DNA from: Niastella koreensis GR20-10
GTDB taxonomy: Bacteria > Bacteroidota > Bacteroidia > Chitinophagales > Chitinophagaceae
Assembly: GCF_000246855.1 (NCBI RefSeq)
Contig: NC_016609.1
Location: 4,824,744 to 4,848,743, forward strand
DNA: 24,000 nucleotides
Direction of reading: 5' to 3'
Part shown: one piece after another, positions 4,701-16,872 of the stretch
Numbering within the stretch: position 1 is the first letter of the stretch
How the letters are laid out: every line of letters begins with the position of its first letter
The notes under the pieces: generated by a model
Told to the model about the DNA's origin: nothing
The model's database searches: none
Seen by the model: only the letters and a program-made list of their open reading frames with translations
Program-made: the position numbers and the translations under genes

Positions 4701-4934
4701 CCTTACGAGTTAAAGGAAAATATTTTCAAACCGTTCTTCCGTATCCGGCAAACAGAAAACCAAACCGGTACGGGAATCGGGCTTGCGTTAGCCCTTTCAT
4801 TGGCCGATTTACATGGCGGCAGCCTGGTGCTCGATACGCCGGAGAACAATATGAACGTATTCACATTTACCATGCCGGTTAATGACGGGTTATGTGAAGA
4901 TAATTCCATAAAGAATATTACTGCTGCGGATTAA
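1728..4934 (+). CDS. Sensor histidine kinase with periplasmic two-component-regulator propeller repeats and a Y_Y_Y-like region (HTCS-type sensor without the receiver)
   Basis: 1068-aa ORF with a hydrophobic N-terminus (YLCIFLLATTMAGLLHA). It has more than 10 propeller-type repeats (MWFGTKDGL, LWIGTEGGL, FWVGTSRGL, WWFGTSSGL, IWIGTYYGG, LWIGTEDEGL, LWVSTFGYG, IWVATESGL, LWLSTTKGL). A TM helix follows (AYSLYAVLFVLLIFVLVRYY), then a coiled coil, H-box FFTNVAHEIRTPLTLI, N-box NLFSNAVKYA and G-boxes VKNDG / GTGIGLALA. The start is TTG at 1728; the only in-frame ATG (1773) would remove the signal/TM segment, so the start is uncertain. Confidence 0.92.
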   Translation: MPFFKYLCIFLLATTMAGLLHASPHYFRHLEVENGLSNNSITCSLQDHLGFMWFGTKDGLNRYDGYSFKVFKKIEGNKKAIGSNFIHCLYEDKQGILWIGTEGGLFRYSSLTEEFSFVAATTNLFIDKIDEDVRGNIWLLSYYKLCRYDRSTEKIKQYDPETYFTATTFCNSPDGSFWVGTSRGLLEKYDFATDRFSGFNLFSHSAPSTRLWVECLYITSDGHFIAGTSDNKIKVFDPVHYTYTDIALSGDEHANLFIKNFVETAKGEWWFGTSSGLFIYDRRNQSVQQIKKDYNNPYSINDNSITSMCRDNEGGIWIGTYYGGINYFANQIVFTKYFPQRGQNSLSGNVVGDIRQDRYGNLWIGTEDEGLNMFDPATGRFTHFEADGKEGSISYFEIHGLLMVGDELWIGTYEHGIDIMDIRTRKVTRRFIAWRDGFTHNYIYNIYQDKAGEIYICTASGAYIFNKGKNNFSVLDGIPPFWCTSIIADRKNRLWVSTFGYGIYLRSKYGGKTDRLCYDEKDPTSLISNRVTSIYEASNGTIWVATESGLCKWNEKEGNFTRFGMANGFPSDFILSILEDAEKNLWLSTTKGLVRFHPSTGKVEVFTTSNGLISDQFNYHSAFKAPDGSMYFGSTKGLVSFHPSHFEQSTFTPPIYLTNFQVNGQEIFPDDPDSLLKQSILYTKEITLRHNQSIFNIDFAAPNYSAPKMVEYAYQMQGLTNNWIYLKDSRRASFTELAAGSYVFCVKAFTNNGWSKETKLLITILPPWWQSRTAYSLYAVLFVLLIFVLVRYYHRRVNEKNKRNFELLRIEKEKEVLEMELKNEKILLQAKIDFFTNVAHEIRTPLTLIKVPLKKVIRKLGFNAEIGNSLQIMERNTDRLIELSGQLLDFRQTELKNVQLYFERKEINQLIAEACSGFTTLAEQNNISFQMEIPQEPLFACIDVDAFHKIIYNLFSNAVKYAHTSVCISLLPYYNSNDSFTLKVKNDGNIIPYELKENIFKPFFRIRQTENQTGTGIGLALALSLADLHGGSLVLDTPENNMNVFTFTMPVNDGLCEDNSIKNITAAD

Positions 4935-4943
4935 ATCTCACAT

Positions 4944-5714
4944 ATGAAACGGAAAATACTGCTGGTAGAAGATAATCCGGAGATGCTGGAGGTGATTACC
5001 GACGAGCTAAGCGAGCATTACCAGGTACAGGCTGCCAGGGACGGCATTCAGGCAATCAAAGTTCTTAAGAACGAATCCGTAGACCTGGTAATTACCGATA
5101 TCATGATGCCTTTTATGGATGGGTTTGAGCTTTGTAAGACTATTAAATCGGATGTGGAATTCAGCCATGTTCCTGTTATCTTATTAACAGCAAAAAACAC
5201 CCTGCAATCGAAAATAGAAGGGCTGGGATTAGGAGCAGATGCCTACATTGAAAAGCCTTTTGATCCCGAGCTGTTGCTGGCACAAATTGCCAACCTGCTG
5301 GACAACCGTAGAAAGCTCAAGCAGCATTTTGCGCACTCCCCTATTGCCAAGCTGAATTCGATGGCCTATACGCATTCCGATGAATTTTTCCTGGAAAAAC
5401 TGGATGCGACGATTCAAAATAACATCGATGATACCGACCTGGATGTGGACAAGCTCGCCCGTTTGATGAATCTCGGCCGCACCAGCCTGTTTCGCAAGAT
5501 CAAATCACTTACCGATCTGACACCCAATGAGCTTGTAAACATTACCCGGCTTAAAAAAGCCGCCGAATTATTAGCCAGCGATGATCTCCTGATCTATGAG
5601 GTTTCGGTTATGGTCGGTTACCGTTCACAAACCAATTTTGGCCGGAATTTTTTTAAAACAGTTCGGCATGAGTCCCAAAGACTTTCAAAAGAGCAAACGA
5701 GGGGGGAAGGCTGA
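4944..5714 (+). CDS. Response regulator with AraC-type HTH output; the C-terminal ~20 aa appear frameshifted
   Basis: REC domain: MKRKILLVEDNPEM, DLVITDIMMPFMDG, LLTAK, IEKPF. HTH_AraC domain: VDKLARLMNLGRTSLFRKIKSLT...VGYRSQTNF. The ORF tail ...GRNFFKTVRHESQRLSKEQTRGEG is not AraC-like. After the T7 run at 5648-5654, the adjacent frame reads LKQFGMSPKDFQKSKRGGKAENK* (stop at 5722-5724), which is the canonical AraC C-terminus. Confidence 0.9.
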   Translation: MKRKILLVEDNPEMLEVITDELSEHYQVQAARDGIQAIKVLKNESVDLVITDIMMPFMDGFELCKTIKSDVEFSHVPVILLTAKNTLQSKIEGLGLGADAYIEKPFDPELLLAQIANLLDNRRKLKQHFAHSPIAKLNSMAYTHSDEFFLEKLDATIQNNIDDTDLDVDKLARLMNLGRTSLFRKIKSLTDLTPNELVNITRLKKAAELLASDDLLIYEVSVMVGYRSQTNFGRNFFKTVRHESQRLSKEQTRGEG

Positions 5715-5778
5715 GAATAAATAGTTTGTTAATTTCACATAATCCCTCCCCGGCAACCTTTTTCACCTACTTCAATTT

Positions 5779-5809
5779 CGGGAAATATCTACAATTCAAC
5801 GGGAAATAT
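5779..5809. promoter_or_regulatory. Direct repeat CGGGAAATAT x2 with 21-bp periodicity; candidate AraC-type operator upstream of the redox cluster
   Basis: An exact 10-mer occurs at 5779-5788 and 5800-5809. Both copies are preceded by TTCAA and followed by (C/A)(T/G)ACA. The site lies about 105 nt upstream of the start at 5916. Function is inferred only. Confidence 0.3.
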
Positions 5810-5915
5810 AGACATCCTTTCTGGCCATAACTCAAATTACTTTTGTGATACAGGAATTCTTACCTCCAATTTATCTGGACGCACAAAGACGTTCATCCTA
5901 TATAAAAATTATTAA

Positions 5916-6455
5916 ATGAGCGATCAATTTGAGGTTCTCAAAAGAGAAAATGTATCGACAAAAAACCAACAGGTGTTTGACCAGATCAAAAGCTTACTGG
6001 GTGCTGTCCCTAATCTCTATTCAACACTGGCCTATTCTGAAAATGCGCTTGAGGCATACTTCAGGTTGGAAACCAGTCCAAATTCTTTAAGTGCAAGAGA
6101 AGTAGCAATAGTGAACCTGGTAGTTAGTGAAATAAATAATTGTATGTATAGCCTGAGCGTGTTTACGATGATTGCCAAACAATCCGGTTTCACGGAAGAA
6201 CAAACCATTGAGATAAGATCTGGCTGCGCTTCGTTTGACACCCAACTGGATGCATTGATAAAATTGACAAGGGAACTTTCCCGTAAGAAAAATATAGAAA
6301 CCCAACAGTTGTTGGACGCTTTTTATATGGCCGGTTATACCAAAGAAAACTTAATGGACATCATCATTCTAATTGGCGATAGAACAATAAGCAATTTGCT
6401 GCATACAGTTACCAGGGTTCCGATCGAATTCCCCCTGGCAAAAACGATTGATTAA
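5916..6455 (+). CDS. Carboxymuconolactone decarboxylase / AhpD-like family protein (paralogue 1; CxxS variant of the CxxC motif)
   Basis: 179 aa. The AhpD-core-like segment is SAREVAIVNLVVSEINNCMYSLSVFTMIAK. It aligns colinearly with the paralogue at 8841-9380, including shared SASFD..L.AL.KL and AGYTKE.L.D blocks. Confidence 0.8.
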   Translation: MSDQFEVLKRENVSTKNQQVFDQIKSLLGAVPNLYSTLAYSENALEAYFRLETSPNSLSAREVAIVNLVVSEINNCMYSLSVFTMIAKQSGFTEEQTIEIRSGCASFDTQLDALIKLTRELSRKKNIETQQLLDAFYMAGYTKENLMDIIILIGDRTISNLLHTVTRVPIEFPLAKTID

Positions 6456-6514
6456 GTTCCTATAAGATTGGCATCAATAAATTGTATACGTAATTATACT
6501 CAATAAATTCAAAA

Positions 6515-7186
6515 ATGAAAAGTTCGATTACCATCAAATTCAGGTCCCTGGCTGTTGTCATATCATTGGCATGCACAACAGGATTGGTTCAGGCACAGGA
6601 TAATGCTCAGCCTGTTGATACGAAACAGCTATCTTATATTAGTCCGCAAAAACCAGAAGACATCAGTCCATTACTCAACGGGGAGAAGATCCCTACGGGG
6701 TTGCTGCCTGATGTTTCGGGAAAGATCTTTGACCTGAACAAGGCAGTGTCTGAAAAACCAACCGTATTGATCATTTATCGTGGTGGCTGGTGTCCTTATT
6801 GTTCCAAACAGCTTTCAGGCTTGCGGCAAGCGGCGCCAGAACTGGAAAAGCTGGGTTATCAATTGATCGCTGTTAGTACGGATGCCCCGGAAGGGCTTAT
6901 GCAATCTGTAACAAAAGAAAAAATAAGTTTCACCCTGCTATCTGACGCAGACCTTAGCTTCTCCAAACAGTTTGGATTAGCTTACAAAGCGCCAATGGGA
7001 TATTGGGAAATGCTGTTAAAATCCACACATGGAAAAGACGTCGATTTGTTACTTCCCGTACCATCTGTATTTATACTGAACAAAAAAGGCGCAATACAAT
7101 TCGAATATATCAATCCTGATTTCAAACAACGGCTGAACCCGGATCTTTTAAAAACCGTAGCGGCCAGTATCATAAAAGAACTTTAA
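6515..7186 (+). CDS. Secreted AhpC/TSA-family peroxiredoxin-like (PRX_like2-type) thiol-disulfide oxidoreductase
   Basis: 223 aa with a signal peptide (SLAVVISLACTTGLVQAQ). It has a thioredoxin-fold motif, VLIIYRGGWCPYCSKQL, followed by LIAVSTD and FTLLSDADL, which are typical of this family. Confidence 0.85.
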   Translation: MKSSITIKFRSLAVVISLACTTGLVQAQDNAQPVDTKQLSYISPQKPEDISPLLNGEKIPTGLLPDVSGKIFDLNKAVSEKPTVLIIYRGGWCPYCSKQLSGLRQAAPELEKLGYQLIAVSTDAPEGLMQSVTKEKISFTLLSDADLSFSKQFGLAYKAPMGYWEMLLKSTHGKDVDLLLPVPSVFILNKKGAIQFEYINPDFKQRLNPDLLKTVAASIIKEL

Positions 7187-7197
7187 ACTAAAAAATC

Positions 7198-7668
7198 ATG
7201 TCTGAAGCCATGAGCAGCAAAATATTTTTAGTTATTAGCCTGATTGGGTTTACAATTGGATTACGCGTGGTCGTTGCACACGCTAAAGAAAAGCAAAACG
7301 TGAAGCAGGCTGAGAAGAAAATATCATTTGTTAATGGCAAATGGAAGGATGTAGCAGCGCTGGCAAAGAAAAAAGGCAAATATATTTTTGTGGATGCATA
7401 TACTGCCTGGTGTGCTCCATGCCGTCAACTCAAAAATGTTACATTCAAAGACAGGGAGGCCGCGGCGTTTTACAATGGAAACTTTATCAGTTATACGGTT
7501 GACATGGAAAAAGGCGAAGGTGTAGAATTAGCTGAAAAATGGGATGTTACGGCGTATCCTACATTGTTATTCTTTACACCTGAAGGTAAAATGGTTATGA
7601 CACAGGTTGGATACGTGAATGGAAAGCAATTGATTGAATTTGGCAAGCAAGCACTTGAAAAACTCTAA
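7198..7668 (+). CDS. Membrane-anchored or secreted thioredoxin-fold protein (WCAPC active site)
   Basis: 156 aa with an N-terminal hydrophobic segment (IFLVISLIGFTIGLRVVVA). Motifs are FVDAYTAWCAPCRQL and the cis-Pro region VTAYPTLLFF. Confidence 0.85.
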   Translation: MSEAMSSKIFLVISLIGFTIGLRVVVAHAKEKQNVKQAEKKISFVNGKWKDVAALAKKKGKYIFVDAYTAWCAPCRQLKNVTFKDREAAAFYNGNFISYTVDMEKGEGVELAEKWDVTAYPTLLFFTPEGKMVMTQVGYVNGKQLIEFGKQALEKL

Positions 7669-7678
7669 AAATAATATC

Positions 7679-7972
7679 ATGGAAACAATTTCGTTATTGG
7701 TCAGGCTTGAAGCAAAGCCAGGCAAAGAACAACAAGTAGCCAATTTCATAAAAGGCGCGCTGTCTTTGGCACAGCAGGAACAAAAAACCATCCGATGGTA
7801 TGCTTTGCAGATAGGACCTGCTACTTTTGGGATCTTCGATACGTTTGAAACTGAAGAAGGCAGGGATGCCCATCTTGGCGGTGAAATTGCAAAAGCGCTG
7901 ATGGCAAATGCGCCTGATTTACTGGCGAAAGCTCCGGAAATCGAAAAAGTGGCCATCCTGGCCTATAAGTAA
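7679..7972 (+). CDS. ABM (antibiotic-biosynthesis-monooxygenase-like, ferredoxin-fold) domain protein
   Basis: I prefer the ATG at 7679 (METISLLVRLEAKPGKEQQVANFIKGAL...) because the track start at 7634 overlaps the preceding gene. The protein would be 97 aa. The pattern V.L..KPGK....F......A..E..T..W.A is ABM-like. Confidence 0.7.
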   Translation: METISLLVRLEAKPGKEQQVANFIKGALSLAQQEQKTIRWYALQIGPATFGIFDTFETEEGRDAHLGGEIAKALMANAPDLLAKAPEIEKVAILAYK

Positions 7973-7977
7973 TCAAC

Positions 7978-8817
7978 ATGATAAGGGAGTATAACGATAA
8001 TGCGACATCGGCACGCTTTATCATGCACAGCGGCAATAAAATGTTTTCGGGTAAGGGGCTGAACAAACCGGCGCCTTACCCAATCAATACCTTCGTGTAT
8101 AATAAAGAGGCAGCCCAGGAAGTGGTTATCGACGAAATTGCCTATACGATGCCCGGAGGCTGCATCCTGCCGCTTGTTTCCAATCAGCATTTTATATTCG
8201 AGCACCCGGAATCCTTAATTGCCTGGCAGTTTAACCGGGAATTCTATTGTATTGTTGATCATGACGCAGAAGTAGGTTGTGTTGGTTTTCTGTTCTATGG
8301 AATACAGCACCCGATGTTCATTAAGTTGAACAAAGATGAAAGTGAAGAAATGTCACACCTGGAAAAAGTATTTTCAAATGAGCTATTGCTGAAAGATAAT
8401 TTCCAGGGAGAAATGCTTCGTACACTGTTGAAAAGGGTGATTATAAAAATCACCCGATTGGCCAAGTTCCAGAGCAAAGACTACCAACAATATCCCGTTG
8501 AAAAAATGGATCTCATAAGAAGCTTTTCTTTATTACTGGAAGGAAATTTCAAACAACAACACGAGGTGAGGTTTTATGCGGGAGCGCTTAACAAATCTCC
8601 CAAAACCCTCAGTAACGTTTTTGCACTGTTGAAACAGCCAGCCCCTTCAATCCTCATCCGGAACAGGATTGTGCTGGAAGCCAAACGTTACCTGCATTAT
8701 ACCGAAAAGTCAGCGAAGGAAATAGCTTATGAACTGGGTTTTGAAAGTCCGGCGCATTTTAGCAGGTTTTTCAAGATGTACGCCGGGACAAACATCTCTG
8801 AGTTTCGCAGTCAGTAA
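7978..8817 (+). CDS. AraC-family transcriptional regulator
   Basis: 279 aa. The C-terminal double HTH reads FYAGALNKSPKTLSNVF...LEAKRYLHYTEKSAKEIAYELGFESPAHFSRFFKMYAGTNISEFR. It sits in the middle of the redox gene cluster. Confidence 0.9.
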   Translation: MIREYNDNATSARFIMHSGNKMFSGKGLNKPAPYPINTFVYNKEAAQEVVIDEIAYTMPGGCILPLVSNQHFIFEHPESLIAWQFNREFYCIVDHDAEVGCVGFLFYGIQHPMFIKLNKDESEEMSHLEKVFSNELLLKDNFQGEMLRTLLKRVIIKITRLAKFQSKDYQQYPVEKMDLIRSFSLLLEGNFKQQHEVRFYAGALNKSPKTLSNVFALLKQPAPSILIRNRIVLEAKRYLHYTEKSAKEIAYELGFESPAHFSRFFKMYAGTNISEFRSQ

Positions 8818-8840
8818 GTAAGCCGTTAAATACAGTCAAG

Positions 8841-9380
8841 ATGGTAACGATAAATAGTTTTCCCAACGAAGCCGGATTAAATAAAAAGAACAAAAGTTAC
8901 CTGGAGTATTTCAATAAGAGGCTTGGTCGAACGCCCAACCTGTTAGTGACTATGATGCATTCAGACCAGGCACTGAGCACCTACTATACTTTTCATAGCC
9001 GAAAAACCTCCTTGTCAAAAAGGGAAATTGAGGCAATAACCCTCACCGTATCGCAGCATAATGGCGCAATGTACTGCCTGAGTGCACATACAATGATTGC
9101 AAAACTGAATGGTTTCAGCGACGAAAATATACTGGAATTGCGCAGGGCATCAGCTTCGTTTGACAGCAAACTGGAGGCTTTGGTAAAACTTGCGGTTTAT
9201 TTGGCAAGACATACGAATTCTATCGATAATAGCCTGCTTGACAATTTCTTTGCAGCGGGATATACAAAAGAGCATTTGATAGATATGCTTCAGGTGATAG
9301 GCGATACCGTTATTACAAATATTACAGGCAGGGTATTCCAGATCCCAATAGATTACCCCCCTGCGAAAGAGCTCTGGTAA
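8841..9380 (+). CDS. Carboxymuconolactone decarboxylase / AhpD-like family protein (paralogue 2; AxxC...H variant)
   Basis: 179 aa. The core segment is SKREIEAITLTVSQHNGAMYCLSAHTMIAK. It has the same length as, and is colinear with, the protein at 5916-6455. Confidence 0.8.
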   Translation: MVTINSFPNEAGLNKKNKSYLEYFNKRLGRTPNLLVTMMHSDQALSTYYTFHSRKTSLSKREIEAITLTVSQHNGAMYCLSAHTMIAKLNGFSDENILELRRASASFDSKLEALVKLAVYLARHTNSIDNSLLDNFFAAGYTKEHLIDMLQVIGDTVITNITGRVFQIPIDYPPAKELW

Positions 9381-9634
9381 AAAAACATTTAATGGAAAGA
9401 CCTCATTCCATTCCGTCTGTTGTCCACGAAGTACTTTTAGTATCACAACTACTTGGAATAGAAAACCCTATAATAAATCTCAGTAAAATCTCCTCAAAAT
9501 AACGCTGTGATACTTTTGTTAGGCTTGTGAAACTCCTTTGGGATATTATCTGTGTTTCTTTGTCCTGTCAGCACGGACGAATCAAACAGTTAAAATCAGA
9601 AAACACTCATTTATTTATCCAAATAATTTTAATC

Positions 9635-10102
9635 ATGAAAAAAGCGGCGGCCATTTTAGTCCTTTTTGTCTCTACTCTCTCAGGGCTTCGGGCACAACAA
9701 GCTTCTGTACGTGTAAAACAATACAATATTGATAAATCGGGCCTGGCCATAGCAGGTTATGATCCCGTAGCCTACTTCATCGACAATAAAGCCCTTGAAG
9801 GCAGCAAAGATATTACAACGGTGTATCAAGGGATTACTTATCGCTTCGCTTCGGTAGGCAATAGGAATGTGTTTAAGGCCAACCCCTTAAAATACGAACC
9901 ACAATATGGAGGCTGGTGCGCCTATGCAATGGGCGCAAAAGGCGAAAAGGTAGAAGTGGATCCGGAAACATTTAAAATCGTTGATGGCAAATTGTTTTTG
10001 TTCTATAATAAATATTTCAACAATACACTCAAAATCTGGAACAAGGATGAAGCCCATCTTAAAACCAGTGCAGATCAAAGCTGGACAAAATTTATTCAAT
10101 AG
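9635..10102 (+). CDS. YHS-domain protein with signal peptide
   Basis: I prefer the ATG at 9635 (MKKAAAILVLFVSTLSGLRAQQ). Motifs are LAIAGYDPVAYF, YRFASVGNRNVFKANPLKYEPQYGGWCAYAM and DGKLFLFYN, which are typical of the YHS-domain family. The Cys in GGWCAY is an ordinary Cys codon. Confidence 0.8.
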   Translation: MKKAAAILVLFVSTLSGLRAQQASVRVKQYNIDKSGLAIAGYDPVAYFIDNKALEGSKDITTVYQGITYRFASVGNRNVFKANPLKYEPQYGGWCAYAMGAKGEKVEVDPETFKIVDGKLFLFYNKYFNNTLKIWNKDEAHLKTSADQSWTKFIQ

Positions 10103-10201
10103 TTTTTGCCCCGGAGGGCAAAGCTATCAAAGGCTATGACGCAATGGCTTTTTTCTTCCACTTCACTATAAAAATCCCTTTTACCCCAACAATCTATCAG
10201 C

Positions 10202-10612
10202 ATGACTAAAAGACAACAACGTTTGATTACCTGGATATTCCGGGTTATAGCAGCACTTATTATGTTGCAGACATTATTTTTCAAGTTTACAGCCGCTCCC
10301 GAGTCGGTATATATTTTTTCCAAACTGGGTATGGAACCCTGGGGGCGCATAGGCATCGGAGTACTGGAGCTGGTCGCTTCAATACTCATTCTTATCCCCC
10401 GGACAATCGCCTTTGGCGCCCTGCTGGGCCTGGGATTGATGAGCGGAGCCATTTTTTTTCATCTTACCCGATTGGGCATCGTAGTACAAAATGATGCCGG
10501 TGAGTTATTCATATATGCCTTGCTGGTTTTTATCAGTTGCCTGATACTGGCAGTTGTTTACAGAGCTCAGCTACCAGGGTTATTCTTCAAAACAAAACAT
10601 GACCACTTATGA
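10202..10612 (+). CDS. DoxX-family small integral membrane protein
   Basis: 136 aa with four hydrophobic segments. A DoxX-like pattern is present (FRVIAALIMLQTLFFKF, GIGVLELVASILILIPRT). The stop overlaps the next start (ATGA at 10609-10612). Confidence 0.75.
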   Translation: MTKRQQRLITWIFRVIAALIMLQTLFFKFTAAPESVYIFSKLGMEPWGRIGIGVLELVASILILIPRTIAFGALLGLGLMSGAIFFHLTRLGIVVQNDAGELFIYALLVFISCLILAVVYRAQLPGLFFKTKHDHL

Positions 10613-11109
10613 TAGCGCAAATAACCCAACCAGTAACATCGCTCCTGAGTCAACTGCAGACCCTGCTGGAAATGCTCACAGACGACCAGTACAGTGAAAA
10701 AGTACCTTTACTTTCCAATGCTTCCCTTGGACAGCATGTACGGCATATTATTGAGTTCTTTCTGGAACTGGAGAATGGCTATGCTACCGGAACTGTCAAT
10801 TACGATGGGCGCAAACGGGATTTTGCAATAGAGACCAGGCGCAGCGCTGCCCTTGATGCGATACAGGTTGTTACTATGAATTTAAAAAAAGAAAACAAAC
10901 AGTTGATGCTGACAGCAGATTTTGGAAGCGACGCCCTCTGCCAGGTTCTTACCAGTTATGAACGGGAGTTGGTGTATAACCTGGAGCATACCATTCATCA
11001 CATGGCGCTTTTAAGAATTGGTGTCAATGCAGTATCTGCCGTTGAATTACCCGACAATTTTGGTGTGGCTATTTCTACCCTTAAATACAGAAAGCTATGT
11101 GCACAGTAA
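10609..11109 (+). CDS. DinB-like (four-helix-bundle, His-triad) superfamily protein
   Basis: 166 aa. It contains LTDDQYSEK...SLGQHVRHIIEFF...NLEHTIHHMALL, that is, conserved His residues spaced as in the DinB/DinB_2 family. It overlaps both neighbours. Confidence 0.65.
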   Translation: MIAQITQPVTSLLSQLQTLLEMLTDDQYSEKVPLLSNASLGQHVRHIIEFFLELENGYATGTVNYDGRKRDFAIETRRSAALDAIQVVTMNLKKENKQLMLTADFGSDALCQVLTSYERELVYNLEHTIHHMALLRIGVNAVSAVELPDNFGVAISTLKYRKLCAQ

Positions 11110-12884
11110 CTTTTATACCTACCTCAAAGGGCATTTACCTTACATCCAACAGGGATGAAAATAAGCACCGCAGCCAGGCTTTACCTCCGGCACAATATAG
11201 CAGCAGTGCAGGCCGGCTCATCTACCCGAAGGATCAGGATGCCTCCGGTAGCTGGATAGGCCTGAAAGAAAACGGGGATGCAGCCGTATTGCTCAACGGC
11301 GCTTTTGATAACCATACACGACAGCCGGCCTATCGTAAAAGCAGGGGCTTGATTTTCCTTGATATTTTTGAGCATTGCAATCCCGGTGAAAGTTTTAGTA
11401 CAATAGACCTAAATTATATAGAACCCTTTACCCTGGTGGTTTACTTCAATAGGCAGCTATGGGAATACCGCTGGGACGGTCACAGGAAACACACGCTTTT
11501 ACTGGATGCAACCAAGCCGCATATCTGGTCTTCTGCTACATTATACGATACTAGTGCCAAACAACAAAGAAAGCGGTGGTTTTTGAAATGGTTTTCATCT
11601 ACCAGCCCCATAGACATATCAAAAGTCATGGGTTTTCATCAGTATGGCGGGCTGGGCGATCTATACAACGGTCTGGTGATAGACAGAGGTAACATGCACA
11701 CCGTCAGCATTACTTCTGTTTTTGGGAATGCTGGCAGCCCCCTGATGAACTACCATGACCTGCAAACGGGTGCAAACGTCTCAACGAAATTTGAACGACC
11801 CGCTTTGCCTTCCAAAGAAAGCGTTTTTCAAAAAGCTTCCTTGTTTGTAAGAAGGGCCCGGATCAAAATAGCTAATTGGGAATTCTGGCCTTTGCACCTG
11901 GTATATGGTCCGCTTTACTTTTATTGGTGCTGGCTAAGCATTCGGGCGCGCTCCCTGTTTTTTTTCAGTGCAGCCAATCCGGGCATACAGTACTCTGGCT
12001 TTGTACATGAGCGCAAAAGTGAAATTTATAAGTTAATCCCTAAGCAATATTACCCGCTAACAAAACTCTGTACGGCAGGCCAGCCCGAGTTAAAGTTAGC
12101 GCAGAACCTGAAAAGAGAAGGATTATTATTTCCAATGATAGCCAAACCTGATGTGGGTGAACGGGGTATACAGGTTAAATTATTGCATTCCCAAGCGGAA
12201 CTTGAGATGTATGCCAGTCGCAGCAAAGTAGATTTTCTGCTCCAACAATTCATTTCCTATAAACAGGAAGTGGGTATTTTCTACTACCGGATCCCTGGCC
12301 AGGACAGGGGATATATCTCCGGTATTGTAGGCAAAGAGTTTCTCACTGTTACCGGTGATGGAAAATCCAGTATAGAGTCACTGGTAAAGGACGAAGATCG
12401 TTTTCTGTTACAGCTATCCGCATTGAGATATACTTATGGCGATTTTCTAAATACGGTATTAGCTGAAGGAGCAGAGTGCGTTCTGGTTCCGTATGGCAGC
12501 CATAGCAGGGGCGCGAAATTTATTGACCTGAGCTACCAGATCACCGAAAAGCTTACCCAGGTAATTGACGGGGTATGCAGGCAGATCCCGGGATTCTATT
12601 ATGGCAGGCTGGATATAAAATTCAATAGCTGGGAAGAGCTGTGTGAAGGAAAAAACTTTTCTATTATTGAACTGAACGGCGCAGGCAGTGAACCTACTCA
12701 TATTTATGATCCTGGGCATTCCCTGTTATATGCCTGGAAAGAGATCTGCCGGCACTGGCATTTGCTTTATAAGATCAGCCGCCTGAATGCCCGGCAAAAA
12801 ACACTTGTGCTAATGAATAGCAGAGAGGGTATAAAAATGATCAGGGACCATCATCGTTATTTAAAAACAATCACACAGGTATGA
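11097..12884 (+). CDS. Fusion protein: NRDE/TANGO2-like domain (N-terminal Met-Cys) + hydrophobic segment + ATP-grasp ligase domain
   Basis: 595 aa. It begins MCTVTFIPTSKGIYLTSNRDE. A hydrophobic stretch, WEFWPLHLVYGPLYFYWCWLSI, lies mid-protein. The C-terminal part is ATP-grasp-like: FPMIAKPDVGERGIQVKLL, EVGIFYYR, YYGRLDIKF, FSIIELNGAGSEPTHIYDP. Confidence 0.75.
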   Translation: MCTVTFIPTSKGIYLTSNRDENKHRSQALPPAQYSSSAGRLIYPKDQDASGSWIGLKENGDAAVLLNGAFDNHTRQPAYRKSRGLIFLDIFEHCNPGESFSTIDLNYIEPFTLVVYFNRQLWEYRWDGHRKHTLLLDATKPHIWSSATLYDTSAKQQRKRWFLKWFSSTSPIDISKVMGFHQYGGLGDLYNGLVIDRGNMHTVSITSVFGNAGSPLMNYHDLQTGANVSTKFERPALPSKESVFQKASLFVRRARIKIANWEFWPLHLVYGPLYFYWCWLSIRARSLFFFSAANPGIQYSGFVHERKSEIYKLIPKQYYPLTKLCTAGQPELKLAQNLKREGLLFPMIAKPDVGERGIQVKLLHSQAELEMYASRSKVDFLLQQFISYKQEVGIFYYRIPGQDRGYISGIVGKEFLTVTGDGKSSIESLVKDEDRFLLQLSALRYTYGDFLNTVLAEGAECVLVPYGSHSRGAKFIDLSYQITEKLTQVIDGVCRQIPGFYYGRLDIKFNSWEELCEGKNFSIIELNGAGSEPTHIYDPGHSLLYAWKEICRHWHLLYKISRLNARQKTLVLMNSREGIKMIRDHHRYLKTITQV

Positions 12885-13540
12885 AAAGGGAAATAACATT
12901 GATCTGTTGGGCCCTGGTCATCAGCTTTGCAGGTTCGTTACCATTGGGAGTTTTAAATATCAGTGTAGCTGATTATATATTTCATCATGACGTAGCAGGA
13001 GGTATTGGATTTTCGATAGCCGCTATTGGCGTGGAAATGATTTTGGTTCGTATTGCCCTTACTGCGGTTAAAAGGCTTGAAACAATGAAACGTTTTTATC
13101 CTTTGTTTGGCATACTGACCATTACCCTATTAATGGTGTTGGCTTTTAATTCCCTGTTCTCCGCCAATAGCAGCCAGGGGTTCAGACCCTCACCGTTAAC
13201 CACTCTTCCCCCGGAGGTGGCAGGCTTCCTGTTAAGCGTCATGAATCCGTTGCATCTGCCTTTCTGGATAGGCTGGACAGCTGTCTTAAAATCCCGTCAG
13301 CTACTGAATGATCAACCTTCATCCTACAACCGTTTTGTTATCGCCATTGGTATCGGCACGGCGGGCGCTTTTGTATTATACGGTATTGCAGGTCATTACC
13401 TGATTGGACTATTGGGTTCTCAACAAGTTTTATTAAACTATCTGATAGGCATCACCTTACTGGTTACCGCACTACTTCAATTCTATAAGACATTTTGCAG
13501 GCCAGTTATAAGGACAAGATGGCCCCGTTCCCAAATTTAA
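12881..13540 (+). CDS. LysE/RhtB-like multi-pass membrane exporter
   Basis: 219 aa with about 6 hydrophobic helices. A LysE-type motif region is present (GFLLSVMNPLHLPFWIGW). The start overlaps the upstream stop (ATGA at 12881-12884). Confidence 0.65.
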   Translation: MKREITLICWALVISFAGSLPLGVLNISVADYIFHHDVAGGIGFSIAAIGVEMILVRIALTAVKRLETMKRFYPLFGILTITLLMVLAFNSLFSANSSQGFRPSPLTTLPPEVAGFLLSVMNPLHLPFWIGWTAVLKSRQLLNDQPSSYNRFVIAIGIGTAGAFVLYGIAGHYLIGLLGSQQVLLNYLIGITLLVTALLQFYKTFCRPVIRTRWPRSQI

Positions 13541-13873
13541 GCTCACAGCAAATAAGTTAATATATACCTGATTTCCTCTATCAAAGCAAGCCTGGATGCA
13601 CACCTGCCTTTCAGACATTGGTTTATCTTTTATCTTCTTTTCTTTCGGATCTGTTTTTTTGTTTTGCGCCCGGGTAGTTAAAGCAAGCGTAGTCAGAATA
13701 ACTGTGGCGACGATTATCCTGCCGATAAGGCTCAACAGGACTGAGCTGTCCAGTACATTCCCGATGGTTACGATTTCAGACTGGGCCGGGGGTGTATCAT
13801 GGTCTTTTTTGCAGGCGGCCAGCGACAGAACAGCGGCGAGTAACGTAACCGTTTTTAATAAGTTATATTTCAT
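13472..13873 (-). CDS. Small hypothetical lipoprotein with an additional TM segment
   Basis: The N-terminus MKYNLLKTVTLLAAVLSLAAC has a clear lipobox. It is followed by a hydrophobic helix (LLSLIGRIIVATVILTTLALTT) and a Lys-rich tail. The 3' 69 nt overlap the convergent LysE-like gene, which lowers confidence in the exact end. Confidence 0.45.
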   Translation of the reverse strand: MKYNLLKTVTLLAAVLSLAACKKDHDTPPAQSEIVTIGNVLDSSVLLSLIGRIIVATVILTTLALTTRAQNKKTDPKEKKIKDKPMSERQVCIQACFDRGNQVYINLFAVSLNLGTGPSCPYNWPAKCLIELK

Positions 13874-13908
13874 TTGTAGTGTATTTTAACACCACAAAAC
13901 AATAGAAA

Positions 13909-13921
13909 CAGTATCCCACAG
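13909..13921. repeat. Direct repeat CAGTATCCCACAG, copy 1
   Basis: An exact 13-mer that recurs at 14221-14233. Weaker similarity continues for about 20 nt to the right of both copies. Confidence 0.6.
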
Positions 13922-14160
13922 GAGTTGCAGAATTGTAACAAAAGTATCAATATCGGAATGCGGGCCGCTGAATTACCGGGAGCTTAATGATTATAGTTAT
14001 AAGCGGCAATTGAAGGTTGAAGAAAAAGAGTTTTCAATAGTGTGGCATTTCAACAGGTAAACATCTAATAGCCCCCATAAAGGATAATAGTAAAAAAATA
14101 CGGATGAGTAACACGTCCGGGGTCTCTGTTTTTGTGAAAGGTGCTAAAGGAAACAAAAAG

Positions 14161-14763: not shown

Positions 14764-16872
14764 TTATAAGAGCGGCAATTCTTTTTCTTTTATCTTTTTC
14801 TCCACCGCATGGATAGCCTTTATTGTTTTGATCACTGAATCAGGTGTGACGGATATAGAATCAATTCCCTCTTCTACCAGAAACTGGGCAAAGTCGGGAT
14901 AATCTGATGGACCCTGACCACAAATGCCAATTTTCACTCCACATTCTTTCGCTGTTTTAATAAGATGAGCAAGCATTCGTTTTACCGTGGGATTGCGCTC
15001 ATCGTATAAATGTGCCACCAATGATGAATCCCTGTCTAATCCCAATGATAATTGGGTGAGATCATTTGAACCAATAGAAAATCCATTTATATGTTCGGCA
15101 AATTCACCTGCCATGATAATATTAGATGGAATTTCTGCCATCAGATACAACTCCAGACCATCTTTGCCCGGCAATAATCCATAATCAGCCATAACTGCTT
15201 TCACTTTCAACAGCTCTTCCACAGTTCTGCAGAACGGTACCATTACCACTACATTCCCCAGTCCCATTTCTTCTCGCACTTTCTTAATGGCTTTGCATTC
15301 CAATTCAAAAGCAGCCTTATAATCATCTGAATAATACCGAGAAGCACCTCGCCATCCAATCATTGGGTTTTCTTCCTGCGGTTCAAAATATTTTCCGCCC
15401 AATAGATTAAAGTATTCGTTTGACTTGAAATCAGAAAACCTCACGATCACTTTATTTGGATAAAAAGCCGATGCAATTTTTGCAATACCAAAAGATAATT
15501 TGGAAATGAAGAAATCTACTTCATCTTCAAAACCAACGATCCTGCTTTGTATAGCTTGGGAGAGTTTCGGATCACTCAAACTTTTATGCTTGAGCAAAGC
15601 CAGCGGGTGTATACCGATATAGTTGTTGATGATAAATTCTTCCCGCACCAAGCCTACCCCTTTATTGGGTATATTGGAAAAACGGAATGCCAGTGAAGGA
15701 GAAGCCACATTTAACGTCAAGGCTGTTCTTATTGCAGGCAGATCACTGATTTTGGTTTGCACCACATCATAGGGCAAACAGCCCTTGTATACAACTCCTG
15801 TTTCACCTTCTGCACAGGAAATGGTCACTTCTTCCCCATCGCTCAAAACAGCAGTTGCATTGCCGCAGCCAACAATGGCTGGTATACCCATTTCCCGGGC
15901 AACAATGGCTGCATGGCAGGTTCTGCCGCCTTTATCAGTAACAATAGCCGATGCTTTTTTCATGATCGGTTCCCAATCAGGATCGGTCATTTCAGTCACC
16001 AACACATCGCCTGCCCTGAAATCCTGTACCTCCGTCATTCCTTTATTCGTGGCGTTCATGAGTTTCACCTTACCGACCCCTACCCTATCACCAACGGCTA
16101 TTCCTTTAACCAGCGCCATGGCACCATGGGGCAACAACACATATTCAATAAGCGTGTCATTATCTTTCCTTGAATGAATTGTTTCGGGCCGTGCCTGAAC
16201 AATAAACAGCTTATTGCTTAAGCCATCTATCGCCCACTCAACATCCATAGGACACCACTTGTTTTTCAGTGCGGAATAGTATTTTTCAATATGCATCACC
16301 CAACGTGACAGTTGTATAATTTTTTCATTATCCAAACAAAATTGCTCTTTCAGATCTATATCTACATCAATGATCTTTACCCTTTCCTCCGGACCATCGC
16401 CATAAACCATCATCCGATCTTTTACGCCAAGCTTTTTCTCAATAACCGCATCATAACCTTCCTTAAGCAATGGCTTGAACACCATAAACTCATCAGGAGA
16501 AACACTGCCCTGTACTACCATTTCGCCCAAACCATAAGAACCATTGATCACCACTACATCTTTAAATCCACTTTCCGTATCAAGTGAAAAAGCAACCCCG
16601 CTTGACCCGAGGTCACTTCTTACCATTTTTTGAATGCACACAGAGAGCCCTACAGCAAAATGATCATACTTAAAAGTTTCCCGGTAAGAAATTGCCCTGT
16701 CTGTAAACAAGGAAGCAAAACAATTACGAACAGCATTTATCAATTCTGCGGCGCCGCTAACATTCAGAAAGGTTTCCTGTTGACCGGCAAAAGAAGCATC
16801 AGGAAGATCTTCTGCAGTGGCTGACGACCGAACCGCTACATCGGTATTTTCCTGACTATACTCTTTTGACAA
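14764..16872 (-). CDS. ppsA: Phosphoenolpyruvate synthase (pyruvate, water dikinase) lacking roughly 90-110 N-terminal residues; possible pseudogene or 5'-degraded gene
   Basis: The 702-aa ORF is colinear with PpsA from the VAVRSSATAEDLPDASFAGQQETFLNV block onward. It contains TDKGGRTCHAAIVAREMGIPA (phospho-His region) and the PEP-utilising C-terminus (GFSIGSNDLTQL). In E. coli PpsA the VRSSATAED block starts near residue 126; here it is at residue 13. The track start is a TTG. The frame stays open upstream only to the TAA at 16936-16938. Confidence 0.9.
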   Translation of the reverse strand: MSKEYSQENTDVAVRSSATAEDLPDASFAGQQETFLNVSGAAELINAVRNCFASLFTDRAISYRETFKYDHFAVGLSVCIQKMVRSDLGSSGVAFSLDTESGFKDVVVINGSYGLGEMVVQGSVSPDEFMVFKPLLKEGYDAVIEKKLGVKDRMMVYGDGPEERVKIIDVDIDLKEQFCLDNEKIIQLSRWVMHIEKYYSALKNKWCPMDVEWAIDGLSNKLFIVQARPETIHSRKDNDTLIEYVLLPHGAMALVKGIAVGDRVGVGKVKLMNATNKGMTEVQDFRAGDVLVTEMTDPDWEPIMKKASAIVTDKGGRTCHAAIVAREMGIPAIVGCGNATAVLSDGEEVTISCAEGETGVVYKGCLPYDVVQTKISDLPAIRTALTLNVASPSLAFRFSNIPNKGVGLVREEFIINNYIGIHPLALLKHKSLSDPKLSQAIQSRIVGFEDEVDFFISKLSFGIAKIASAFYPNKVIVRFSDFKSNEYFNLLGGKYFEPQEENPMIGWRGASRYYSDDYKAAFELECKAIKKVREEMGLGNVVVMVPFCRTVEELLKVKAVMADYGLLPGKDGLELYLMAEIPSNIIMAGEFAEHINGFSIGSNDLTQLSLGLDRDSSLVAHLYDERNPTVKRMLAHLIKTAKECGVKIGICGQGPSDYPDFAQFLVEEGIDSISVTPDSVIKTIKAIHAVEKKIKEKELPLL

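Follow-up and report, generated by a model that had tools for sequence, protein, structure and literature searches.

The human disease gene TANGO2 has a disputed biochemistry, its product having been described as a heme chaperone, as an acyl-CoA binder and as a hydrolase with an N-terminal nucleophile (Ntn) cysteine. Its structure is that of a Cys-Ntn hydrolase like acid ceramidase, NAAA, bile-salt hydrolase (BSH) and isopenicillin-N acyltransferase (IAT) (PMC13044924), and its NRDE region binds the acyl part of C16/C18 acyl-CoA (PMC11867700). In this study, we relate this family to Niako_3841, a protein of the soil bacterium Niastella koreensis GR20-10 in which an NRDE/TANGO2 domain is joined to an ATP-grasp ligase, and whose gene lies in a 24,000-nucleotide stretch of contig NC_016609.1 (positions 4,824,744 to 4,848,743 of the forward strand), hereafter the window. 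The reading that we favour, tentatively, is that the substrate of Niako_3841 is an N-acyl-amino-acid lipid of the membrane (aminolipid or lipoamino acid) whose head group the protein remodels, rather than a low-molecular-weight thiol, as a first-pass annotation made from the sequence alone had suggested.

The open reading frame is intact, starts with ATG and encodes 595 residues on the + strand of the window (11097-12884), the coordinates and length already given in the first-pass annotation. The peptides quoted there were all found on re-reading: MCTVTFIPTSKGIYLTSNRDE at residues 1-21, ANWEFWPLHLVYGPLYFYWCWLSIRARSLFFF at 259-290, FPMIAKPDVGERGIQVKLL at 345-363, EVGIFYYR at 391-398, GRLDIKF at 503-509 and FSIIELNGAGSEPTHIYDP at 521-539. 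The translation is an exact match to Niako_3841 (AEW00135.1 / WP_014220048.1), which is named 'NRDE family protein' in RefSeq and 'ATP-grasp domain-containing protein' in UniRef. From N- to C-terminus, the protein is laid out as follows:

11097-11801, + strand (residues 1-235): NRDE/TANGO2 Cys-Ntn domain, from PF05742, Foldseek, hhalign and invariant residues

11802-11870, + strand (residues 236-258): variable, indel-rich linker that forms the fusion junction, from alignment gaps and low predicted local distance difference test (pLDDT) values

11871-11972, + strand (residues 259-292): conserved aromatic interfacial segment, from hydropathy, Wimley-White scores and motif conservation

11973-12884, + strand (residues 293-595 and the stop codon): ATP-grasp amide ligase catalytic region, from Foldseek, a profile match and invariant residues

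An AlphaFold2 (AF2) model built on 54 full-length homologues (alignment A1) has a mean pLDDT of 86.7, with low confidence only at residues 235-240, in the linker, and 466-470. Its predicted TM-score (pTM) of 0.59 suggests two domains that are modelled without a fixed mutual orientation. Both domains look catalytically competent, because the catalytic residues are conserved across fused, split and distant homologues.

The N-terminal half had been assigned to the NRDE/TANGO2 family, and this is borne out by sequence and by structure. Pfam TANGO2/PF05742 matches residues 1-150 above its cut-off (E = 5.5e-11, 43.5 bits; cut-off 22.6), over profile positions 1-159 of 257 only, and Foldseek against the PDB pairs this half with human TANGO2 (8sv7, chain B, E = 2.4e-10, TMt 0.57; also 9bwa) as well as with IAT (2x1d) and choloylglycine hydrolase (CGH, 5x8z). 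Cys2 directly follows Met1, the N18-R19-D20-E21 motif is present, and C2, R19, D20, E21, N67, S146 and R158 are invariant in an alignment of fused and distant split NRDE forms. When the NRDE-domain alignment was compared by hhalign with the human TANGO2 sequence (query confirmed identical to 8sv7; probability 94.8%), C2 was paired with Cys2, N18-R19-D20-E21 with N25-R26-D27-E28, N67 with Asn75 and R83-G84 with R88-G89, and the TANGO2 residues aligned in this way are residues proposed as catalytic in a 2026 crystal-structure paper (PMC13044924). The position of TANGO2 Asn157 appears to correspond to the invariant S146, a placement made by eye beyond the range of the hhalign alignment. Human TANGO2 (8sv7/9bwa) and the bacterial domain thus have the alpha-beta-beta-alpha Ntn fold in common, as well as Cys2, the NRDE motif and the Asn at position 75 (67 in Niako_3841). 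Unlike in the human protein, the domain in Niako_3841 is joined to an ATP-grasp ligase and is apparently coupled in translation to a DinB-like gene; the identity between the two is about 15-19%, and the sequence alignment is limited to the first ~120-150 residues.

Cys2 is presumed to act as the N-terminal nucleophile once Met1 has been removed, a step to be expected because the second residue is small. IAT (2x1d), BSH (5x8z), acid ceramidase and NAAA have in common with this domain the fold, the N-terminal Cys and an Asp/Arg/Asn constellation (PMC13044924). Such Cys-Ntn hydrolases and transferases cleave or move fatty- or steroid-acyl amides, which is the chemistry proposed here for the NRDE half. 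They mature by autoproteolysis or signal-peptide removal, whereas Niako_3841 would need the removal of Met1 only, and sequence identity is about 10%. A quite different role would be binding without catalysis, in the manner of the chaperone for heme or acyl-CoA proposed in the case of TANGO2 and HtpA, so that the domain would only deliver or sense a ligand for the ATP-grasp half. Heme-trafficking claims for bacterial TANGO2 homologues (PMC10470608) are in line with such a role, as is the report of acyl-CoA binding by TANGO2 without demonstrated catalysis (PMC11867700). However, the strict invariance of the seven residues named above is an active-site-like pattern, the heme role has been disputed (PMC12782551) and heme binding was found to be nonspecific (PMC13044924); we regard a purely binding role as very unlikely.

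The C-terminal half had been called an ATP-grasp ligase, and this assignment stands by fold and by conserved motifs, whereas the sequence models all stay below threshold. The best Pfam ATP-grasp model was RimK PF08443 (E = 0.0077, 16.3 bits, under the cut-off of 21), NCBIfam ATP-grasp matches were far under their cut-offs, phmmer against the PDB reached E = 0.08-0.24 only, and TIGR02068 (cyanophycin synthetase) scored at most 45 bits on homologues against a cut-off of 850, a similarity that is only G-domain-like. By Foldseek, this half matched the cyanophycin synthetases 7ta5 (CphA2), 7txv and 7lgq, the ATP-grasp domain of GshF (3ln6, 3ln7) and more than 30 D-Ala-D-Ala ligase (Ddl) chains, with E = 1e-9 to 1e-6 and probability 1.00, and a sequence profile of the family matched CphA2 7ta5 with E = 0.0039. 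K350, E391, R504-x-D506 and E525-x-N527 are invariant in the 54 full-length fused homologues (A1); none of the equivalents of K350, R504, D506 and N527 varies in 47 more distant C-terminal modules (alignment A2), where the positions of E391 and E525 are conserved to at least 90%. Being too diverse to seed a genome scan, A2 was replaced for that purpose by a 12-sequence alignment (A3). In the numbering of A2 and A3, K96, R250, D252 and N273 are invariant in both; E271 is so in A3, with conservation of at least 90% in A2. We take K350, R-x-D and E-x-N to be the counterparts of the ATP-binding Lys and the Mg/acyl-phosphate motifs of Ddl. ATP-grasp enzymes activate a carboxylate as an acyl-phosphate, which is then coupled to an amine. 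The fold and the Lys, R-x-D and E-x-N motifs are shared with the G domain of CphA1/CphA2, with GshF and with Ddl. In contrast to these enzymes, Niako_3841 has neither the N and M domains of CphA nor a GshA domain, the aromatic motif takes the place of the usual N-terminal region, and the ligase family is repeatedly fused to DedA/VTT and LysE.

A Cys-dependent amidase and an ATP-dependent amide synthetase are also combined in one chain in E. coli GspSA, whose two halves act on the same bond. The GspSA amidase is a CHAP (papain-like) rather than an Ntn domain, and its synthetase belongs to a distinct family; neither CHAP nor GspS was reported for Niako_3841 in Pfam/NCBIfam scans at E up to 0.1, and the precedent drawn in the first pass therefore serves as an analogy and not as homology. 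The same combination of domains might be read as an amidotransferase, in which the NRDE half frees ammonia or an amine from a donor such as glutamine and the ATP-grasp half amidates a lipid or soluble carboxylate. An N-terminal Cys nucleophile domain and an ATP-dependent ligase in one chain would suit this, with precedents in carbamoyl-phosphate synthetase (glutaminase and ATP-grasp) and in AsnB (Ntn glutaminase and ATP-dependent synthetase). NRDE is also dispensable in many of the DedA-type loci described below, as expected if free ammonia or amine can substitute. Nevertheless, no GATase family was reported for Niako_3841 in the Pfam/NCBIfam scans at their thresholds. The closest structures are acyl-amide hydrolases and transferases together with TANGO2, whose cavity is large, amphipathic and acyl-binding (PMC13044924, PMC11867700), and the pTM of 0.59 with a disordered linker gives no sign of a fixed inter-domain channel. 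An amidotransferase therefore seems rather unlikely to us.

Between the two halves, the linker has pLDDT < 50 at residues 235-240 and is gap-rich in A1; its position corresponds to the stop/start region of split orthologues, where small overlaps or gaps are found. The aromatic segment that follows was modelled with a pLDDT of 83-95 and has 12 aromatic residues out of 32, with basic residues at both flanks. This segment had been described as strongly hydrophobic and the ligase as membrane-associated. In a 19-residue window, Kyte-Doolittle hydropathy does not exceed 0.9 anywhere in Niako_3841, against the usual transmembrane threshold of 1.6, which is too weak for a transmembrane helix and rules out a transmembrane anchor. 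The Wimley-White interfacial score of residues 263-281, however, is -11.8 kcal/mol, about 4 standard deviations (SD) below the protein mean (+2.4, SD 3.5). The segment is the most interface-seeking stretch of Niako_3841, and its equivalent ranks top in every stand-alone homologue tested. Family-wide, it carries the motif W-E-[FY]-W-P, then P, then FFF-x-A-A-N-P, then G-G-x-x-E-S-K, found at the extreme N-terminus in stand-alone homologues and after the DedA domain in fusions. What remains of the proposed membrane association is this conserved interfacial element, without a transmembrane helix. From its composition and conservation, the segment probably belongs to the enzyme proper, as a monotopic element that sits at the membrane interface or binds lipid, and is not a mere anchor.

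The NRDE::ATP-grasp architecture is present in databases under generic names, and both domains come from known superfamilies. A homology search with Niako_3841 returned 1,715 matches. The best 120 of these are nearly all full-length, mostly of 585-625 residues, with 51-76% identity and 93-100% coverage (nearly all 99-100%), the exception being a 338-residue Niastella entry; the genera represented among them include Chitinophaga, Puia, Flavitalea, Pedobacter, Mucilaginibacter, Olivibacter and Daejeonella. The exception, OQP49680.1 from another assembly of Niastella koreensis, annotates only the C-terminal 338 residues (100% identical, ATA start, window 11868-12884) and bears the UniRef name 'D-alanine--D-alanine ligase'; the shortened form is probably due to faulty annotation or to a lesion of the NRDE half peculiar to that strain. 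Such an entry is what one might expect if two genes had been joined by a sequencing or assembly indel. But in Chitinophagales, Sphingobacteriales and Dyadobacter, more than 100 homologues of 585-625 residues can be aligned over their whole length, junction included, and the exact protein is a RefSeq entry (WP_014220048.1), which together effectively exclude the indel and leave it a negligible probability. The reading of the gene as a true fusion in Bacteroidota is thereby upheld.

Fused and split orthologues nevertheless coexist, rather than the two halves always being separate genes. A search with the ligase module alone (residues 255-595) against a representative library of 1.84 billion proteins (clusters at 50% identity) matched 2,808 clusters (E < 1e-30 for 1,097), and the 150 matches listed of these 2,808 are mostly stand-alone proteins of 335-365 residues with the aromatic motif at their start. 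In the split form, an NRDE gene (225-250 residues) stands directly upstream of an ATP-grasp gene of ~350 residues and often overlaps it (e.g. L007, L008). We assembled a Bacteroidota-type set of 88 loci (L001-L088) with 90 ATP-grasp genes, 80 of the loci coming from one-per-species genomes (all Bacteroidota) and 8 from exact-protein look-up; two of the latter, L005 and L006, carry a DedA-type fusion. The ATP-grasp gene is fused to NRDE in 27 cases, preceded by a split NRDE gene in 53 and without NRDE in 10. With the halves fused or adjacent in 80 of the 90 cases, the earlier suggestion that the protein makes and breaks one amide-linked molecule is still plausible. In a neighbour-joining tree of the ligase domains, most fused forms fall into one broad clade, with some split and NRDE-less forms nested inside it, and a single origin of the fusion is therefore not upheld. 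Puia sp. SMAG_U6188 has two complete fused cassettes on separate contigs (L014, L018), and L057 holds two ATP-grasp paralogues within one locus; such duplicates could reflect several ligation steps or specificities per genome.

The wider family provides the link to membrane lipids. Besides the NRDE fusion, the ligase module occurs as LysE::ATP-grasp (P0180), as VTT/DedA::ATP-grasp, as alpha/beta-hydrolase::VTT::ATP-grasp (~860-900 residues) and as TANGO2::alpha/beta-hydrolase::VTT::ATP-grasp (P0218, 1,121 residues). The hydrolase-DedA-ligase fusion, annotated as 'alpha/beta fold hydrolase' only, has 1,585 matches at E < 1e-20, with hosts in Verrucomicrobiota/Opitutales, KSB1, Acidobacteriota, Rhodothermales and some Bacteroidota. 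Bacteroidota and DedA-type ligase modules are 35-49% identical and have the aromatic N-terminal motif in common. In the 79 DedA-type metagenome loci analysed (of 80 fetched), VTT and ATP-grasp are found in all 79, and an alpha/beta hydrolase in 54 as well. The usual gene order is OlsB-like, OlsA-like, DinB-like, [NRDE], [hydrolase]-DedA-ATP-grasp, [DoxX], where brackets mark facultative members. Upstream of the ligase, in the 36 loci with at least 2.5 kb of sequence on that side, an OlsB/OlsF-like gene was found in 29, a DinB-like gene in 27 and NRDE in 10; on the downstream side, DoxX was present in 9 of 59 loci. NRDE and the alpha/beta hydrolase show a weak trend towards being alternatives (Fisher p = 0.054). 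A Leptospiraceae genome also has a trio of DinB, NRDE and (DedA-like) ATP-grasp genes.

The OlsB-like proteins (~265 residues) match PF13444 and, under the equivalog cut-off, the OlsB-related NCBIfam model (E = 5e-40). Between the OlsB-like and DinB-like genes lies a gene of ~255 codons that matches PF01553 in the four loci checked and, in the single locus scanned with NCBIfam, the OlsA-related model (E = 6e-46, under cut-off). A divergent OlsF-like bifunctional synthase adjoins the module in L005, L092-094, L150, L170 and one further locus; in L005, a TMEM164-family gene (PF14808, 7436-8209) stands beside the OlsF-like gene, near the 1,121-residue fusion. OlsB/OlsA, OlsF and GlsB/GlsA belong to families other than those of Niako_3841, but OlsB-, OlsA- and OlsF-like genes are operon partners or neighbours of its DedA-fused relatives, with scores under the NCBIfam equivalog cut-offs. 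Taken across both types of locus, the conserved core is the DinB-like and ATP-grasp pair, usually with NRDE and DoxX, to which either aminolipid acyltransferases and a DedA domain or, in loci of the window type, YHS, DM13, YceI and LysE-like genes are attached.

We favour the aminolipid reading because relatives of the ligase are fused to DedA/VTT and hydrolase domains in operons headed by OlsB/OlsA-like genes. OlsB/OlsA-type enzymes form acyloxyacyl amino-acid lipids whose head group has a free carboxylate, which is the kind of substrate that an ATP-grasp ligase needs. Under this proposal, Niako_3841 would be the fused form of a Cys-Ntn amidohydrolase/acyltransferase and a Ddl/cyanophycin-synthetase-like ligase. 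The ligase half would dock at the cytoplasmic surface of the inner membrane through its aromatic segment, phosphorylate the free head-group carboxylate to an acyl-phosphate and couple this to an amine, for instance an amino acid, so that the head group would be extended or capped (for example Gly to Gly-Ser to Gly-Ser-Orn). By way of Cys2, the NRDE half would act on an acyl or aminoacyl amide of that same lipid, either cleaving or transferring it, in editing, turnover or acyl supply, and the LysE-like protein, or DedA in other phyla, would carry the product across the membrane. Chitinophaga and Olivibacter, both of which carry the NRDE::ATP-grasp fusion according to our homology search, produce the Gly-Ser lipid 430 and a family of Gly-Ser-Orn tripeptide lipids (PMC8433624).

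In the window, the fusion gene belongs to a cassette that lies entirely on the + strand, in the order YHS, DoxX, DinB-like, NRDE::ATP-grasp fusion, LysE-like, with start/stop overlaps of 4 nucleotides between DoxX and DinB-like, 13 between DinB-like and fusion, and 4 between fusion and LysE-like. The partners of the fusion gene are:

9635-10102, + strand: first gene of the cassette, encoding a YHS-domain (seleno)protein-family member with a signal-peptide-like N-terminus, from NCBIfam and Pfam

10202-10612, + strand: DoxX_2-family integral membrane protein with about 4 hydrophobic segments, from PF13564 and Kyte-Doolittle hydropathy

10609-11109, + strand: DinB/YfiT-fold protein of 166 residues, from alignment A5, a profile match and AF2/Foldseek

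12881-13540, + strand: accessory cassette member, a LysE-superfamily-like membrane protein (219 residues, about 5-6 hydrophobic segments), from orthologues with PF01810 and Kyte-Doolittle hydropathy

The DoxX and DinB-like neighbours noted in the first pass are thus present, and the neighbourhood is kept across Bacteroidota: on the same strand as the 90 Bacteroidota-type ATP-grasp genes, we found a DinB-like gene in 81 cases, DoxX in 73, YHS in 58 (upstream of the ATP-grasp gene) and a LysE-like gene in 34 of the 85 cases with enough downstream sequence. The YHS assignment comes from NCBIfam NF041384 (E = 1.9e-41, 140.8 bits; cut-off 70) and Pfam YHS (E = 7.6e-07), the mechanical open reading frame starting at GTG 9527, and that of DoxX_2 from PF13564 (E = 1.7e-08, over cut-off). 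The YHS protein of the window has a Cys in the motif GGWCAYAMG, and may be the Cys form of its family if this is the family's Cys/Sec position; tandem pairs of YHS paralogues occur in many related loci.

The DinB-like gene is the most conserved partner of the NRDE/ATP-grasp pair. Its product, which we take for a metalloprotein, has invariant H43, H46, H127, H130 and H131 as well as R45, R68, R70 and R119 (A5), its profile matches 3dka, 'DinB-like', with E = 0.004, and its AF2 model (pLDDT 91.7) matches DinB/YfiT structures by Foldseek at TM 0.57-0.67. The nearest of these are uncharacterised 'metal-dependent hydrolases' and YfiT, with characterised thiol transferases lower. Its stop overlaps the NRDE start by the 13 nucleotides ATGTGCACAGTAA (window 11097-11109), and this same overlap was found in 84 of ~100 DinB-NRDE pairs across phyla. 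As the M-C-T-V start of NRDE is invariant, the DinB-like protein is forced to end in C-A-Q-stop in the other frame, and its C-termini are CAQ in 59 cases, CAR in 9, CVQ in 8 and CAP in 5. The conservation of the overlap suggests translationally coupled co-expression of the two proteins.

Several further genes recur in or near these cassettes. In the Bacteroidota-type loci, DM13 'electron transfer' genes were found in 29 and YceI-like lipid-binding genes in 17 (for example at L034 4678-5190 and L040 5113-5697), ECF sigma genes in 25 and their paired zf-HC2 anti-sigma genes in 21; MsrA/B genes also occur in related loci. In seven Sphingobacteriaceae loci of Pedobacter and Mucilaginibacter (L001, L003, L004, L013, L023, L059, L061; in L003 at 4397-5113), a stand-alone CoaB paralogue lies between the YHS and DoxX genes (PF04127 E = 2e-67; TIGR00521 213 bits against a cut-off of 219.7). 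CoaB is phosphopantothenate-cysteine ligase, and TANGO2 deficiency has been linked to vitamin B5/CoA. Upstream of the cassette, the window holds a redox-stress island (1728-9380) with a Y_Y_Y/Reg_prop histidine kinase with an AraC-type response regulator, an AraC regulator (7978-8817), two CMD/AhpD-like genes (5916-6455 and 8841-9380), AhpC/TSA (6515-7186) and a thioredoxin-like gene (7198-7668). Downstream lies a PEP-synthase/PPDK-like open reading frame of 702 residues with a TTG start (14764-16872, - strand); its PPDK_N match begins at profile position 92 with no in-frame open reading frame upstream, which points to either an N-terminal truncation or a mis-called start. A promoter/terminator scan of 9300-14000 gave counts at chance level, Bacteroidota promoters being outside the coverage of the tool.

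The DoxX and DinB-like neighbours had led to the proposal of a bifunctional enzyme, synthetase and amidase in one, for making and breaking a thiol of low molecular weight or its conjugate. In such a reading, the DinB-like protein would be a thiol S-transferase, DoxX a membrane redox partner and LysE the exporter, in a mercapturate- or GspSA-like logic. The DinB-like model does resemble YfiT (1rxq) and, at lower ranks, BstA (5wk0) and mycothiol S-transferase (8f5v), the best structural matches of the ligase include the glutathione-synthetase domain of GshF, AhpC/TSA, thioredoxin, CMD/AhpD, MsrA/B and ECF sigma genes are found in the window and related loci, and the CoaB paralogue, a cysteine ligase, stands in the operon of the seven Sphingobacteriaceae loci. 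In the ergothioneine pathway, EgtA/EgtB/EgtC combine an ATP-dependent amide ligase, an enzyme containing a DinB fold and a Cys-Ntn amidohydrolase, the last of which, in the EgtC step, takes off the group that the ligase had added. EgtA, however, is a GCS2 ligase, EgtB carries an FGE-sulfatase domain and EgtC is a class-II GATase-type Ntn enzyme, whereas the cassette of Niako_3841 has neither an FGE-sulfatase domain nor a methyltransferase, its ligase is of the ATP-grasp type and its Ntn domain is NRDE. Against the thiol proposal, no Glu-Cys ligase, bshA-C or other thiol-biosynthesis gene is among the conserved cassette members, and the DinB matches are mostly the uncharacterised hydrolases, known thiol transferases appearing at E > 1. 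The thiol proposal also leaves the DedA/hydrolase fusions, the OlsB/OlsA context and the interfacial aromatic element unexplained. Based as it was only on DoxX, DinB and redox neighbours, it gives way to the membrane aminolipids of the wider context, and we now consider it unlikely.

A soluble product would be another way to account for the window-type cassette. In this case, the ligase would make a dipeptide-like or otherwise amino-acid-derived compound exported by the LysE-like protein, NRDE would be a maturation or self-protection amidase, and the lipid-gene neighbours in other phyla would reflect a different, paralogous function. LysE proteins are exporters of amino acids and their derivatives. 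The LysE-family neighbours and the one LysE fusion fit this, as do the resemblance of the ligase to enzymes that join amino acids (Ddl, GshF, cyanophycin synthetase) and the lack of an aminolipid gene by the Bacteroidota-type operons. On the other hand, the common aromatic motif and the 35-49% identity make a complete change of substrate class less likely, a LysE-like gene accompanies only 34 of 85 cases, and TANGO2-family pockets take long acyl chains (PMC11867700). We find a soluble product, and with it a separate function for the lipid-associated paralogues, doubtful.

Some of these observations also weigh against the aminolipid reading itself. The lipid link is one of guilt by association. 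The window contains no OlsB/OlsF/GlsB-like gene (PF13444 or OlsF-like), and within 7 kb in L001-L088 such genes were found only in L005, itself a DedA-type fusion. The window-type partners YHS, DM13, YceI and DoxX are periplasmic or redox-type, the operon setting is one of redox stress (AhpC/TSA, thioredoxin, CMD, Msr and ECF sigma nearby), and the nearest structural relatives of the ligase work on soluble peptides or amino acids. NRDE is not obligatory for the ligase, being present in 10 of the 36 DedA-type loci, and the Sphingobacteriaceae CoaB paralogue accords no less well with a metabolite of the thiol or pantothenate type.

The aminolipid reading has a more specific form, which is possible but somewhat improbable, in which the ATP-grasp family is the missing head-group ligase of peptide aminolipids and NRDE, its seemingly obligate partner, an N-acyl-amino-acid amidase/acyltransferase. 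Two aminolipid steps stand without a gene, the ligation of Ser to glycine lipid and the ATP-dependent addition of taurine to ornithine lipid. For flavolipin/L654, a search by Pfam domains gave no candidate for the Ser-ligating gene (PMC12746155), and the addition of taurine to the ornithine-lipid carboxylate depends on ATP, its gene likewise being unassigned (PMC12971839). As a host for glsBA, E. coli produces glycine lipid and lacks the Gly-Ser form (PMC12746155). Since the present family stays under every Pfam/NCBIfam ATP-grasp threshold, a Pfam-based search for the Ser ligase would miss it. Candidate reactions would be Ser with glycine lipid to flavolipin/L654, Orn with Ser-Gly lipid, and taurine with ornithine lipid. 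The first of these concerns lipid 654 (flavolipin) of Bacteroidota, a TLR2-active product of Ser ligation; its known producers include Bacteroides thetaiotaomicron, B. dorei, Porphyromonas gingivalis and Flavobacterium johnsoniae, while Gluconobacter cerinus produces cerilipin.

In the literature searched, no paper pairs NRDE/TANGO2 with ATP-grasp or YHS with DoxX, or describes the cassette, in agreement with the earlier statement that no characterised protein of such architecture was known. What was found on DoxX and DinB in Bacteroidetes dealt with the DNA polymerase DinB, apart from one unrelated mention of DoxX. What appears to be new is the inferred connection of the TANGO2 family with an unrecognised ATP-grasp family and with aminolipid operons. 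The DoxX-DinB-NRDE-ATP-grasp cassette has a wide distribution, its ligase module being matched by at least 2,800 clusters at 50% identity. For TANGO2, the coupling of bacterial NRDE to a ligase with relatives in aminolipid operons offers a testable substrate class, N-acyl amides of amino acids, and if NRDE is indeed an N-acyl-amino-acid amidase/acyltransferase paired with the missing head-group ligase, this would be the first defined physiological substrate class for the TANGO2 family, including the human protein.

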